A DNA stretch of 64,000 bases from Alphaproteobacteria bacterium (lineage in GTDB: Bacteria > Pseudomonadota > Alphaproteobacteria > JAGOMX01). The notes under the pieces are model-generated. The model did no database searches. It saw only the letters and a list, made by a program, of their open reading frames with translations, and was not told the DNA's origin. Location: the NCBI GenBank assembly GCA_017993335.1, contig JAGOMX010000003.1:790-64789 (forward strand). Reading direction: 5' to 3'. This document shows positions 44,823 through 50,375 of this stretch, piece after piece; the stretch's first letter is position 1; every line of letters starts with the position of its first letter. A program made the position numbers and the translations under genes.

Positions 44823-44966
44823 TGAGGCCATTTCAAAACGTCTTTTTTGGGTGATTTCGTCGTCAATGTTCCGCTTCCGGTGCTCACGTACGAAGAGGTA
44901 CGCTGCGCTCCGGTTCTCACCTTTCCTATAAATTCCTCCAAAAAAGCCAATTTTGAAATGGCCTCA
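44823..44966. mobile_element. MITE-like element, family C (copy C1), abutting the kbl stop codon
   Basis: TIRs are tgaggccatttcaaaacg ... (c)agttttgaaatggcctca. It is >90% identical to the copy at 50231-50375. Confidence 0.65.
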
Positions 44967-45232
44967 TAATTTAAATCCCGTTAACTATTTATTAAATTCA
45001 TATATGTAGAATTTCCAGGTGCTAGATAGCCTCGTACGTTCAGCACAAAAGCTCGCGGAGTTTATAGTAAGACTATTTAACGCGTGCAAGGATTGTTCCA
45101 TATGGGCTCTCCTATAAATGAGAGGTGTATATTGACCTCTCATTTATTTTGATCAGATATTTTACCCTCATTTATCAAAAACATCGGATTTGCATCTGGT
45201 CAGTTGGCCTTTATCTTGCTTTAATAGAGGCG

Positions 45233-46015
45233 ATGAAAAATATATATGTCGTCAGTCTTATGTTTTTGGTGCTCTTGCCAGATCTTTTGGCGAGTAACTT
45301 GTGCACGGGGCATATTAAGCGTATCGAGAGATTAGAAGGCATTCCCCATAACCTATTGCTGGCCATGGCTCATGTGGAGTCTGGGCGTTATGATGCGACG
45401 CGGAAATCTGTTGAGCCTTGGCCGTGGACAGTGCAATCACAGGGAAAATCTAACTATTTTAATTCCCGGCACGAGGCTGTGTCTTATGTGCATGAGCTGA
45501 TGAAAAAAGGGATTAAAAATATCGATATCGGTTGTATGCAAATGAATGTGGAGCACCACAGTCATAAATTCCCCAGTATTGATCATATGTTTGATCCCGG
45601 TTTAAACGTCGGACAGGGGGCTAAATATTTAAAACAGCTAAAAGAACAAAAAAAACAAGGGTGGTCGACGGCTGTCGGTAACTATCATTCTTTTACCCCA
45701 GAATTTCATGATCGATATAAGACAAAAGTGTTCAAGAAGCTTGCGCAAGTCAACAACCAACCGGGCGTTTATTCCGCTAAACTGGAGGCCTCTAAAGGTA
45801 GTCTGTATGGCAGGTCAGAAACAACTCCAGCGGATTACAGGGTGAATGCATCGTTGTATTCATATTCTCGGTCCCATGGTTTGACAGGGGCAAGGAAGCC
45901 CGTTCAGCCGAGAATCCATAAAGTGGTTAAAAATACGACCAAAAGTCGTGTCGCTATGATGAAAAGTCGAGGAATCAAAGGTCTCGAGTTTATGGAAAAA
46001 AGTGAAGAACCATAA
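45233..46015 (+). CDS. Lytic transglycosylase (SLT-domain protein)
   Basis: Start trimmed to MKNIYVVSLMFLVLLPDLLA (signal peptide). The SLT signature LLLAMAHVESG is present, followed by a G..M..M-type catalytic region (GCMQMN). Confidence 0.7.
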   Translation: MKNIYVVSLMFLVLLPDLLASNLCTGHIKRIERLEGIPHNLLLAMAHVESGRYDATRKSVEPWPWTVQSQGKSNYFNSRHEAVSYVHELMKKGIKNIDIGCMQMNVEHHSHKFPSIDHMFDPGLNVGQGAKYLKQLKEQKKQGWSTAVGNYHSFTPEFHDRYKTKVFKKLAQVNNQPGVYSAKLEASKGSLYGRSETTPADYRVNASLYSYSRSHGLTGARKPVQPRIHKVVKNTTKSRVAMMKSRGIKGLEFMEKSEEP

Positions 46016-46035
46016 AACTCGAGAGTCGATAATCT

Positions 46036-47415: not shown

Positions 47416-47450
47416 CAAAAAACAATAAAAAACGGAAAAGGCATAAAGTT

Positions 47451-48905
47451 ATGAGACGTAATAGAAATACAAAAATTACGGCAACTCTTGGTCCGGCATC
47501 CTCGTCTGAAGACGTGATTGAGCAGTTGTACGTGAATGGTGTGGATATATTTCGCTTAAACTTTTCCCACGGCCTTCATGCCGATCATGCTTTGCGTGTA
47601 GAGACAATCCGTAGATTAGAGTCTAAATATGATCGTCCCATAACCATTGTGCTGGATTTACAAGGACCTAAACTTCGTGTGGGTAGGTTTCAAAATGACT
47701 ATGTGGATTTGAAGAAAGATCAGTCATTTCGTTTGGATCTAGATCCCACATTGGGGGATGAATCCCGGGTGCAATTACCCCACCCAGAAATATTTGCGGC
47801 TCTCGAGCCTATGACGGATCTGTTGGTAGATGACGGAAAAATCCGCTTGAAAGTTTTGAGTTTTGGGGCTGATTTTGCAGAAACAAAAGTGATTGTGCCG
47901 GGGCGTATTTCTCATAATAAAGGCGTAAATGTACCAGGGGTGGCCTTGCCTATATCCGTATTAACGGAAAAAGACCGTAAAGATTTAGCCTTTGGTTTGG
48001 ATTTGGGGGTGGATTTTGTCGCTCTTTCTTTTGTGCAAAAGCCAGAGGATGTCTTAGAGGCCAGAGATCTGATACAGGGTCGTGCTAAAATTATATCCAA
48101 ACTAGAAAAGCCGCAAGCTATTGAACACCTGGAAGAAATCGTTCGTCTGTCCGATGGTGTTTTGGTGGCGCGTGGGGATTTAGGCGTGGAAATGCTACCC
48201 GAAGAAGTTCCCAGTATTCAAAAGCGGATCATCCGTATTTGTCGTGAACAGGGGCGACCGGTTTTGGTGGCCACACAAATGCTCGACTCTATGGTTACCA
48301 GCCCGACACCCACCCGAGCAGAGGCTTCCGATGTGGCAACGGCTGTGTATGATGGAGCCGATGGAGTGATGCTATCAGCAGAGTCTGCCAGTGGGGCTTA
48401 CCCGGTTGAGTCGGTTGCGATGATGGATCGGATTATTCTGCAGGTGGAAAAGGATTCATACTATAAAACCATGTTAGATCTACACCATAGCGTGCCGGAG
48501 GCTACAGCTTCGGATGCGATTACTATGGCTGCCAACCAAGTTTCTCGTACGATTGGGGCGAAGGCAATTGTAACCTATACGGAAACCGGGTCGACGACGT
48601 TGCGGGCTTCGCGAGAAAGGCCAGCGGTGCCTATACTGGCCTTAACTTCAAATATGATTACAGCTCGTCAGTTGAATTTTTCCTGGGGTGTGCATGCGGT
48701 AAAATGCCAAGAGGTTTCTGATTTTTTTCATATGTCAGAAGTAACTTCGCGTTTGGTTCTGGCGGAGGGCTTGGCTAAAGATGGTGATTCCGTAGTGATT
48801 ACGGCGGGCATTCCCTTTGACGTTTCCGATCAAACCCAGATTTTTGCGGCAGGAACTACAAATTTACTGCGGATCTTGCAGGTAAAATCGAGCGCGAGTT
48901 TATGA
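47451..48905 (+). CDS. pyk: Pyruvate kinase
   Basis: 484 aa with TKIxATLGPAS, ARGDLGVE and MLDSM motifs. Confidence 0.9.
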   Translation: MRRNRNTKITATLGPASSSEDVIEQLYVNGVDIFRLNFSHGLHADHALRVETIRRLESKYDRPITIVLDLQGPKLRVGRFQNDYVDLKKDQSFRLDLDPTLGDESRVQLPHPEIFAALEPMTDLLVDDGKIRLKVLSFGADFAETKVIVPGRISHNKGVNVPGVALPISVLTEKDRKDLAFGLDLGVDFVALSFVQKPEDVLEARDLIQGRAKIISKLEKPQAIEHLEEIVRLSDGVLVARGDLGVEMLPEEVPSIQKRIIRICREQGRPVLVATQMLDSMVTSPTPTRAEASDVATAVYDGADGVMLSAESASGAYPVESVAMMDRIILQVEKDSYYKTMLDLHHSVPEATASDAITMAANQVSRTIGAKAIVTYTETGSTTLRASRERPAVPILALTSNMITARQLNFSWGVHAVKCQEVSDFFHMSEVTSRLVLAEGLAKDGDSVVITAGIPFDVSDQTQIFAAGTTNLLRILQVKSSASL

Positions 48906-50233
48906 GTATGGATGCAGATACCGTTTTTCAGCGTCTAAAAAGATACGGGCAAGTATCGACGAAGCTTCCGGGGCTTTTCATGCGATTGGCCAGTGGTCAG
49001 TATATGGATGTGGATCGCGTTCGTTTGGCGCAAGATTTACGAGCGGCATTGGGGGACTTAAAGGGGCCATTGATGAAAGTGGCGCAGATGCTTTCTACGA
49101 TACCGGATGCACTACCCATGGAATATGCCTCTGAATTGGCTCAATTACAATCGAACGCGCCTTCTATGGGCTGGCCTTTTGTGAAAAGGCGGATGCAATC
49201 GGAATTGGGGGCGGACTGGCAGTCTCGTTTTAAGGACTTTGAAAAACAAGCCTGTTCAGCGGCTTCTTTAGGTCAAGTGCACAAGGCGACGCATCTGAAT
49301 GGTGAGGCTTTGGCCTGTAAGCTGCAATATCCACAAATGGCATCGGTTGTGGAGGCGGATCTGGCGCAGTTGCGATTTATTTTTAAGTTTTATGAAAAAT
49401 ATGACAGTGCAATTCAAACCAGCAAAATTCTCGACGAAATTTCTGATCGGCTGTTAGAAGAGCTGGATTACGAAAGAGAGGCCAAACATATAGCCTTGTA
49501 TGCCTATATGTTAAAAAATCAACCGCAAGCCCATGTGCCGCAGGCTTATTCCGAATTATCGACGAGCCGTTTACTCACGATGAGCTGGCAAGAAGGCGTG
49601 CCTCTTCGTCAGATTATGGATCGCTCGCAGGAATGCCGTAACCAAATTGCCCGACAGATGTTTCGGGCTTGGTATGAGCCATTTTATTCTTATGGCGTGA
49701 TTCACGGAGATCCTCATCTGGGGAATTATACATTCCGAGAGGATAATTCCGTTAATCTTATGGATTTTGGCTGTTTGCGTATATTTCCCGCAAAGTTTGT
49801 GGGCGGTGTGATTCACCTGTATAAGGCTTTGCTCACCAATGATATGGATATGGCTGTGGAGGCCTATAAAAGCTGGGGGTTTGAAAACCCGAGCAAAGAA
49901 TTAATTGAGGTTCTAAATGGCTGGGCCAGATTCTTGTATGGTCCTGTTATGGATAATCGGGTGCGCCATATTGATGAAACACGTAAAGGGATTTATGGAC
50001 GAGAGGTGGCGGCAAAAGTTCATGAGGAGCTGAGAAAAATTGGCGGGGTTACGCCGCCGGCAGAATTCGTCTTTATGGATCGGGCTGCCATAGGTTTAGG
50101 ATCGGTTTTTCTGCATCTAAAGGCAGAGTTGAATTGGTATGAAGAATTCCAAATGTTAATACAAGACTTCTCACCAGAAAAAATGCAAAGCCAACAACAA
50201 AAGGCAATGATCGCCGCGGGCCTAGAATACTGA
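48902..50233 (+). CDS. ABC1/UbiB-family atypical kinase
   Basis: 443 aa with ABC1 kinase motifs (AAASLGQVHKA, HGDPHLGN, MDFG). Its stop codon TGA is the first three bases of the MITE C2 left TIR. Confidence 0.75.
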   Translation: MSMDADTVFQRLKRYGQVSTKLPGLFMRLASGQYMDVDRVRLAQDLRAALGDLKGPLMKVAQMLSTIPDALPMEYASELAQLQSNAPSMGWPFVKRRMQSELGADWQSRFKDFEKQACSAASLGQVHKATHLNGEALACKLQYPQMASVVEADLAQLRFIFKFYEKYDSAIQTSKILDEISDRLLEELDYEREAKHIALYAYMLKNQPQAHVPQAYSELSTSRLLTMSWQEGVPLRQIMDRSQECRNQIARQMFRAWYEPFYSYGVIHGDPHLGNYTFREDNSVNLMDFGCLRIFPAKFVGGVIHLYKALLTNDMDMAVEAYKSWGFENPSKELIEVLNGWARFLYGPVMDNRVRHIDETRKGIYGREVAAKVHEELRKIGGVTPPAEFVFMDRAAIGLGSVFLHLKAELNWYEEFQMLIQDFSPEKMQSQQQKAMIAAGLEY

Positions 50234-50375
50234 GACCCTTTCAAAACGTCTTTTTTGGGTGATTTCGTCGTCAAGGTTCCGCTTCCGGTGCTCACGTACG
50301 AAGAGGTACGCTGCGCTCCGGTTCTCACCTTTCCTATAAATCCCTCCAAAAAAGCCAGTTTTGAAATGGCCTCAA
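50231..50375. mobile_element. MITE-like element, family C (copy C2)
   Basis: TIRs are tgagaccctttcaaaacg ... cagttttgaaatggcctca. It is flanked by atac/atactga. It shares >90% identity with the copy at 44823-44966. Confidence 0.65.

Follow-up and report, generated by a model that had tools for sequence, protein, structure and literature searches.

What becomes of a gene when a transposable element settles on its stop codon? This question is raised by a stretch of 64,000 nucleotides (nt) of contig JAGOMX010000003.1 (assembly GCA_017993335.1; the whole stretch is called the window here) from an uncultured alphaproteobacterium with a G+C content of 43.8%. The window carries two copies of a short hairpin element (i.e., family C), one directly behind the stop codon of kbl, a gene for glycine C-acetyltransferase, and the other at the end of a gene for an ABC1/UbiB-family kinase. 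The original prediction, made from the window alone, described both copies as transposable elements of the miniature inverted-repeat kind (MITEs) inserted exactly at stop codons, the second probably at the expense of the kinase C terminus. We found that both proteins are undamaged by the insertions. As judged by its central sequence, family C is a low-G+C variant of a family of ~142-nt hairpin MITEs distributed across several alphaproteobacterial orders. The explanation that we consider probable is that the element is an IS5-type MITE and that docking at stop codons is a property of the whole family.

Two copies of a 144-bp hairpin element

Copy 1 (positions 44823 to 44966) and copy 2 (50231 to 50374) both lie on the + strand, and copy 1 is co-oriented with kbl. 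Both are 144 bp long and align without gaps, with 5 mismatches (i.e., 96.5% identity, consistent with the >90% first reported). The predicted start of copy 2 was correct, while its end, placed at 50375, was one base too far out. The terminal inverted repeats of copy 1 (TGAGGCCATTTCAAAA / TTTTGAAATGGCCTCA; 44823 to 44838 on the + strand, with the partner at 44951 to 44966) pair perfectly over 16 nt and imperfectly further inward over ~30 nt; two substitutions mark the left end of copy 2 (TGAGACCC). The inverted ends are thus present as predicted, but the perfect stretch is 16 nt rather than 18 nt, and the sequence of the right arms is AATTTTG and AGTTTTG instead of CGTTTTG. When up to three mismatches were allowed, the end 16-mer occurred four times in the window, precisely at the four element ends (chance expectation, 0.86; none of 100 shuffled sequences gave four occurrences).

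Each copy folds into one long hairpin over its full length (-52 kcal/mol; z-scores, -6.5 and -5.7). A core shared with elements of other Alphaproteobacteria occupies positions 44872 to 44918 of copy 1 (+ strand; CGCTTCCGGTGCTCACGTAC-GAAGAG-GTACGCTGCGCTCCGGTTCTC) and 50280 to 50326 of copy 2 (+ strand; located by pairwise alignment and a profile search). In copy 1, this core forms a 37-nt hairpin whose pairing is imperfect, its mismatches being fixed. Neither the window nor the related elements matched any Rfam family at the gathering score or at E-values of up to 10.

The only open reading frames (ORFs) that the two copies give rise to are mechanical antisense ones, as had been suspected. The first (44735 to 44950, - strand) begins inside copy 1, and the second (50020 to 50349) is its counterpart at copy 2. 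These two ORFs are alike only over the ~40 residues encoded by the element, and a Pfam search with them returned no family match; they should not count as genes in annotation. The element is thus short and noncoding. It may also be dispersed: there are two copies in 64 kb, and at both loci the Logan contigs from the source sample break off after 30 to 32 nt of the element, which is what a multicopy repeat would produce.

Both genes keep their native ends

The kbl gene (43629 to 44822, + strand) encodes a 397-amino-acid class I/II aminotransferase (Pfam Aminotran_1_2) whose relatives are named glycine C-acetyltransferase. Copy 1 follows its TAA stop codon (44820 to 44822, + strand) directly, as predicted, and this TAA is at the same time the left half of a 3-bp target duplication, the right half of which lies at 44967 to 44969. 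The direct repeat ATAAT is visible at 44819 to 44823 and again at 44966 to 44970 (period, 147 nt; i.e., 144 + 3). The C terminus is native and intact: close kbl orthologues all have 397 amino acids and end in ...GRRLxxI, as does the window protein. No empty site was found for this copy; the nearest other kbl is 79% identical, and the protein cluster contains no variant. The insertion site itself is a small palindrome, GGGATTATA[TAA]TTTAAATCCC (44810 to 44822 and 44967 to 44979), with the element in its loop, and its overall fold is no better than that of shuffled sequence.

At the kinase gene (48902 to 50233, + strand; Pfam ABC1; 443 amino acids), the stop codon in use (TGA, 50231 to 50233) is formed by the first three bases of copy 2, again as predicted. 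A 4-bp target duplication, ATAC, flanks the element (left, 50227 to 50230, + strand; right, 50375 to 50378), within a longer direct repeat, AATACTGA, at 50226 to 50233 and 50374 to 50381 (period, 148 nt). The insertion therefore added 148 bp (i.e., the 144-bp element and one ATAC), and the displaced native TGA now lies at 50379 to 50381 (+ strand), 148 nt 3' of the working stop, as seen in an alignment of the window with two close relatives. In the first relative, an ENA contig (L002) whose kinase protein is 99% identical, the element is present and 100% identical to copy 2. The second, a Logan contig (L004) with a 98% identical kinase, has an empty site with a single AATGCTGA. The empty site reads ...GGC TTG AAA TGC TGA AAAATTT, with the stop at the same codon as in the window, where the sequence is ...GGC CTA GAA TAC [TGAGACC...GGCCTCA ATAC] TGA AAATTTT. 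The kinase and HU genes are 170 nt apart in L004 but 319 nt apart in both the window and L002, a difference made up of the 144-bp element, the 4-bp duplication, and a 1-nt indel elsewhere. Two further loci (L025 and L026; kinases 83% and 79% identical) likewise lack the element.

With inverted ends, no coding capacity, a clean target duplication, and presence or absence between strains whose kinases are 98% identical, the identification of the element as a MITE stands. The kinase C terminus is native and intact as well; the protein has the same length as its two closest relatives, and more distant orthologues (434 to 456 amino acids) end at a similar point. The C terminus of one protein (P0004, ...GLERPFES) was considered as an element-derived tail and rejected because its DNA (CGT CCG TTT GAA AGT TAA) is unrelated to the element and its locus is empty.

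A hairpin family across alphaproteobacterial orders

A BLAST search against plasmids and chromids matched the central 47 nt of copy 1 to 38 alphaproteobacterial records (81 to 92% identity; E = 4e-8), nearly always in unannotated intergenic DNA. The core is ~90% identical to the center of ~142-nt hairpins in Sphingobium, Shinella, Agrobacterium, Ensifer, Mesorhizobium, and other genera. We read 17 core-bearing plasmid and chromid loci individually, and in every one the core is central in a hairpin element of 141 to 143 nt (118 nt in one case), against 144 nt in family C, where it likewise occupies the center. All of these relatives fold as full-length hairpins. In the reverse direction, a profile built only from elements outside the window recovered both window copies and no others, each on the + strand (E = 5e-15 and 8e-15). 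By core homology, the family is taken to span the Sphingomonadales, Hyphomicrobiales, and Rhodospirillales.

Structure is maintained within the family while sequence varies. Across the relatives, the core hairpin shows six two-sided compensatory changes and no broken pairs. In the outer arms, complementarity within an element extends to 12.1 of 14 positions, versus 5.6 of 14 between elements.

Four core hairpins, on three loci (L063, 1732 to 1764; L071, 7750 to 7779; L079, 7502 to 7530 and 9255 to 9284), have no recognizable complementary arms; their positions refer to the core-forward strand, which for L063 and L071 means the reverse complement. Such hairpins may represent copies in decay, or the core may have a second kind of carrier. 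Br-REP1 and Br-REP2 of Bradyrhizobium were compared and set aside, since their sequences differ from that of the element. A literature search by sequence string matched the core only to reads from Thalassospira lucentensis, reported as the multicopy "miRNAs" TTCGGTGCTCACGTACTTTTAG and TGCGCTCCGATGCGCGTGAACC (PMC6413936, Table 5); these are the two arms of the core hairpin, in the plus-strand sense.

Docking at stop codons is a property of the family

The association with stop codons noticed in the window is real in the family that shares the core. At eight annotated loci (L029, L031, L032, L034, L036, L039, L041, and L008, the last with TGA), the end of the upstream gene coincides exactly with the element's left end; at another (L007), the stop codon of a convergent gene adjoins the right end. 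At L041, the duplicated target is the TGA stop codon itself. The usual junction, ...TA|GG...CC|TA..., reads TAG on both strands. Of 15 annotated loci, 11 are stop adjacent, while 4.4 would be expected if insertion were uniform within the free intergenic interval (P = 7e-7); when three loci lacking a free interval are left out, the figures are 8 of 12 versus 1.4 expected. Under the same uniform intergenic null, the probability is ~0.03 for each window copy. The intergenic intervals of the G+C-rich hosts hold just one to five TA sites, and a TA target therefore largely explains the docking in these hosts.

On plasmids of Shinella and Sphingobium (L034, L036, and L039), the stop codons of convergent genes adjoin both ends of the element, and at the ancestral site both stops must have overlapped within one common CTAG or TTAG.

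Scanning IMG/VR contigs for the core pattern added 34 loci. Together, an automatic boundary finder and the removal of same-locus duplicates yielded 48 independent full copies. A stop codon was counted when a co-oriented ORF of at least 80 codons ended between -3 and +12 nt of an element end. This interval was chosen since the ends were taken from curation and from an outward extension aligner that overextends by 2 to 8 nt; the outermost pair given by RNAfold, which overextends into palindromic flanks, was not used. Stop codons stood at the left end of 32 copies and at the right end of 5, including 4 copies with stops at both ends, while 15 copies had neither.

Two relatives show what can follow an insertion at a gene end. 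In Shinella WSC3-e (L031, 440 to 521, compared with L039, 521 to 523, at the same locus), the flanking stop CTA has mutated to CTG, and the gene for a pyridoxal-dependent decarboxylase now runs ~80 nt into the element. On pRvVAR031a of Agrobacterium vitis VAR03-1 (L035, 381 to 396), a TAA located 15 nt within the element terminates the coding sequence of a hydroxylase, the last few residues of which are thus element encoded.

Orientation bias and strand asymmetry

Among the copies with a stop codon at one end only, 28 have it at the left end and 1 at the right end (P = 1e-7); both window copies are in the majority orientation. The strands also differ in how well they fold. In 35 of 36 copies, the better fold as RNA is that of the strand antisense to the gene upstream; the mean free energy is -82.7 kcal/mol for the minus strand versus -70.7 kcal/mol for the plus strand, and G.U pairs number 175 versus 52. 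Within the outer 32 nt of each arm, where sequences are unrelated between subfamilies, transition-type mismatches are split into 79 that give G.U on the minus strand and 9 that give G.U on the plus strand (P = 4e-15). Both window copies share the left-end stop codon and the better-folding minus strand, which is more stable by 4.4 and 7.0 kcal/mol (mismatches 0 versus 2 in each copy).

The asymmetry keeps its sign in copies that are not stop adjacent or that lie in the reverse gene context (L030, 0 versus 5; L038, 0 versus 4), and therefore belongs to the element itself. From the deamination biases that coding and leading strands usually show, the opposite sign would be expected. One candidate explanation is that the minus strand, as RNA or as single-stranded DNA, is the selected fold. 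Another candidate is that an overly stable mRNA hairpin behind a stop codon is harmful, so that only copies whose sense hairpin is the weaker one persist. This wobble signature of the antisense strand is a concrete observation that can be addressed in cultivable hosts.

IS5-type ends and a probable transposase-based explanation

A BLAST search with the left arm of a Shinella element matched the ends of annotated IS5-family transposase genes. The ends GGACCGATCGACATTCA and GGCCCGATCGACATTCAGGCC bound insertion sequences (ISs) of ~855 bp in Rhizobium johnstonii pRlX2 (L044) and in Kozakia baliensis pKB16680_1 (L043); these ends are identical, or nearly so, to the arms of the hairpin elements from Shinella and Sphingobium (17 to 18 nt exact). 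Both ISs are flanked by TA inside CTAG, and the transposase of the Rhizobium IS is encoded by two frameshifted ORFs that both match NF033580 (IS5 family). The IS427 group is described as having lengths of 832 to 865 bp, inverted repeats of 13 to 21 bp, two frameshifted ORFs, and direct repeats of 2 bp or sometimes 4 bp (PMC3281130, Table 2). The size, the two-ORF structure seen in L044, and the 2-bp direct repeats match this group, and on the basis of the shared ends we regard the hairpin relatives as MITEs with IS427-type ends, i.e., terminal inverted repeats of ~20 bp. The target duplications of family C (TAA and ATAC; 3 and 4 bp) also contain TA and fall within the 2- to 4-bp range. Unlike the deletion remnant of an IS, the interior of ~100 nt is a separate hairpin module that is common to subfamilies with different ends, and the strong orientation bias is not known for IS5-type MITEs.

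We therefore consider it probable that family C and its relatives are mobilized as IS5-type MITEs. A DDE transposase supplied in trans would bind both ends and insert the element at a short T/A-containing target (TA, TNA, or YTAR), and repair of the staggered cuts would duplicate 2 to 4 bp of this target. Stop codons themselves would serve as targets, and the element ends would restore the stop, by means of TGA...TCA in family C and of G...C beside the duplicated TA in most relatives. Since the stop would be rebuilt at the same codon, an insertion on or beside it would leave the protein unchanged, while insertions elsewhere in genes would be lost by selection. At kbl, the element would have entered just after the TAA and duplicated it; at the kinase gene, it would have entered just before the TGA and duplicated ATAC, whereupon its own TGA took over as the stop. 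Family C was presumably moved by the same kind of transposase as its relatives, and we infer that target choice and selection together suffice for docking at stop codons.

Several observations weigh against this explanation. The first concern the link between family C and its relatives. They share only the 47-nt core; the arms are loosely alike (10 of 18 positions compared with a Mesorhizobium arm, by eye, plus an ATTTCA motif), and only two family C copies were examined. The family C ends (TGAGGCCATTTCAAAAC) bear only a loose likeness to the IS ends, with variable tips followed by an ATTTCA/ATTCAG motif; the elements at L055 and L064 also begin with TGA and finish with TCA. The window targets (ATA|TAA|TTT and AATAC|TGA) are not YTAR, whereas the relatives use CTAG or TTAG, and the two duplications are of unequal length (i.e., 3 and 4 bp). 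Intergenic DNA of the window host is A+T rich, with ~20 TA sites at the kbl locus, and there a TA target is a weak explanation of the docking.

An autonomous partner was found for the Shinella/Sphingobium subfamily only. The window contains no IS with family C ends and encodes no IS5-type transposase. A BLAST search of plasmids with the family C end returned nothing, as did a search of 185,579 representative genomes with an exact 35-mer and a paired-end pattern. The end pattern matched 16 loci in JGI metagenomes, all coding coincidences or the end of one unrelated element, and the seven matches of the 16-mer in viral contigs were all coding coincidences. No parent IS was found for the GGATGTGTGGGG arms of Sphingobium. 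Finally, neither the orientation bias nor the wobble asymmetry is predicted for a symmetric MITE mobilized by a DDE transposase. In the course of these searches, ten JGI and ENA contigs (L009, L012 to L014, L017, L018, L020, and L022 to L024) were found to share the end TGTCAACGGCCATTTCAAAACCCTCTTTTTTGGCCATGAAAAACC... while their flanks differ; this is an unrelated multicopy mobile element with 25 nt in common with the family C end.

The element is ordinary in kind, while the family shows unusual features. A lineage-specific repeat of an uncultured bacterium is tied to a multi-order alphaproteobacterial family whose IS5-type ends are interchangeable, whose one inner hairpin is strongly conserved, and which docks at stop codons, sometimes at the shared CTAG of convergent genes, in one orientation. 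Its cultivable hosts offer a system for studying cost-free transposon insertion at gene ends, and the same hosts could reveal whether an element of this kind turns into a 3'-end regulatory or insulating module.

Alternative explanations

The orientation bias and the strand asymmetry leave some room for a different view, which we hold to be possible but clearly the less probable one: the element may be mainly a structured nucleic acid, used by the host or self-serving, with the antisense strand as the functional fold (RNA or single-stranded DNA). Docking and orientation might then stem from this function or from strand-specific insertion, with the IS5-type ends as just one vehicle, a suggestion that we offer tentatively. 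The ~142-nt elements, including family C, could in that case form an undescribed multi-order family whose antisense strand is selected to fold. With the same reserve, this strand might act as an antisense RNA, might terminate antisense transcription or insulate against it, or might serve in single-stranded DNA form as the substrate for a strand-specific factor, and such a factor could conceivably recognize the conserved apical hairpin with its fixed mismatches. The ~90% conservation of the core across orders, the compensatory changes, and arms that vary yet stay complementary all fit such a role, as do the better folding of the minus strand, the mismatch split that persists in L030 and L038, and the orientation of 28 copies against 1. 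Target duplications are clean, though, and the ends exactly match those of IS5-family ISs; we found no promoter or terminator consensus and no Rfam match, and the sole expression data, the Thalassospira small-RNA reads, come from the plus strand. The asymmetry itself could reflect selection against an overly stable mRNA hairpin after the stop codon.

It is very unlikely that family C is indifferent to stop codons and that its two window copies came to lie there by chance. With only two copies, the observation is post hoc, and A+T-rich intergenic DNA offers many sites, but the probability per copy is low, as given above, and homologues in other genera share both the docking and the orientation.

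Very unlikely, in our view, is an element like the repetitive extragenic palindromes (REPs), REPINs, or IS200/IS605 derivatives, mobilized in the form of single-stranded DNA by a tyrosine HUH transposase (i.e., RAYT, the REP-associated tyrosine transposase, or TnpA). Such an origin would suit the conserved imperfect hairpin with its fixed mismatches and bulge, the strand asymmetry, and the orientation bias. CGTC motifs lie beside the family C core, and REP superfamilies are tagged with GTAG or CGTC (PMC3733652). HUH insertion gives no target duplication, yet copy 2 has one; GTAG is absent from the element, and the ends of the relatives match those of DDE ISs. Furthermore, the center is conserved and the tips vary, which is the reverse of the arrangement in REPINs, and we rejected a REP or REPIN identity on account of this and of the duplication.

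Hardly credible is the original proposal that the insertion removed the native C terminus and stop of the kinase and so truncated or altered the protein: the stop in use does belong to the element, and coding sequences of some relatives end inside it (15 nt in at L035 and ~80 nt in at L031 after a stop mutation), but the empty site has TGA at the same codon, the old TGA persists behind the element, and the comparison with orthologues that had been proposed as a check shows the same length and end in close relatives and about the same end point in distant ones.

Comparison with known repeats

A parallel in placement is QMITE2 of Coxiella burnetii, a small palindromic MITE of 150 to 190 bp that lies mostly in 3' untranslated regions, with ends that overlap the last 1 to 10 bp of genes, and that has variable direct repeats (7 to 11 bp), a REP-like inner palindrome with a GTAG core, and partial relatives in Alphaproteobacteria (PMC5896051). 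Family C differs from it, by description, in its 144-bp length, its 3- to 4-bp duplications, and its lack of GTAG. A Coxiella QMITE identity, suspected from the style of the repeats, was rejected on these grounds and because the host is an uncultured alphaproteobacterium.

Integron attC sites resemble the family in being imperfect palindromes at or overlapping the stop codon of the preceding gene, in a fixed orientation, with a structure that is kept while sequence varies and with one strand, carrying extrahelical bases, as the active fold. In contrast, the elements lack RYYYAAC/GTTRRRY end sites and occur as scattered single copies with duplications and IS5-type ends. In the absence of both cassette arrays and these core sites, an attC identity was rejected. 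To our knowledge, integrons are essentially absent from Alphaproteobacteria.

Brucella Bru-RS1 and Bru-RS2 and rhizobial RIME1 and RIME2 are palindromic intergenic repeats of ~100 to 118 bp in Alphaproteobacteria, and IS711, a member of the IS5 family, has a hot spot in Bru-RS. In a comparison based on descriptions only, these repeats differ from the family in length (103 to 118 nt versus 142 nt). RIME1 is abundant in Sinorhizobium meliloti, and the core search of plasmids and chromids matched no replicon of this species, which argues against a RIME1 identity. The ~142-nt family appears to be undescribed.

The ERIC/YPAL and Correia (NEMIS) elements are imperfect palindromes of ~100 to 160 bp that are cotranscribed with their neighbors and duplicate TA (in part, PMC2229807). 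Like QMITE2 and the present family, ERIC and Correia elements are palindromes of 3' untranslated regions that reach into gene ends. They belong to other phyla or classes, have no sequence similarity to the family, and are conserved at their ends. The ERIC sequence is conserved across genera, and ERIC and Correia elements have orientation-dependent effects on mRNA. We know of no report of stop-codon docking or of an antisense-strand wobble bias in ERIC/YPAL or Correia elements. E. coli REPs are stable stop-proximal hairpins that point to a possible reason for the weaker mRNA-sense hairpin, and differ in being 35 to 40 nt long, RAYT linked, and devoid of inverted ends and target duplications; Liang, Rudd, and Deutscher (2015) reportedly found that REPs lying no more than ~15 nt from a stop codon influence both the termination of translation and the fate of the mRNA.

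Terminator-like sequences and other repeats in the window

The original prediction also proposed terminator-like sequence as the target of insertion. This proposal was not borne out: in folding, neither the empty sites reconstructed for the two copies nor the actual one in L004 surpassed shuffled sequence, and no terminator or promoter consensus was detected in or at either copy. Family C is not an intrinsic (Rho-independent) terminator either, since neither copy contains a terminator-like site and the G.U pairs favor the antisense strand. The probable native terminator of the kinase operon (AAACCTTTTAATAACAGGTTTTTTT), read by eye, lies ~110 nt 3' of the insertion point.

The window contains other repeats as well. 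A second intergenic family (40366 to 40536, 51774 to 51944, and 55551 to 55674; 64 to 84% identity) has two of its members between convergent gene ends. A third group (60947 to 61085, 62197 to 62383, and 35382 to 35456; 88 to 99% identity), with short palindromes such as CCTGCGCAGG, occurs in both convergent and divergent intergenic regions. Tandem repeats are found within two ORFs, with 66-nt units at 52424 to 52951 inside the ORF at 52070 to 52963 and 102-nt units at 38458 to 38865 inside a 1,183-amino-acid ORF at 36743 to 40294; both ORFs appear to encode repeat-containing proteins.

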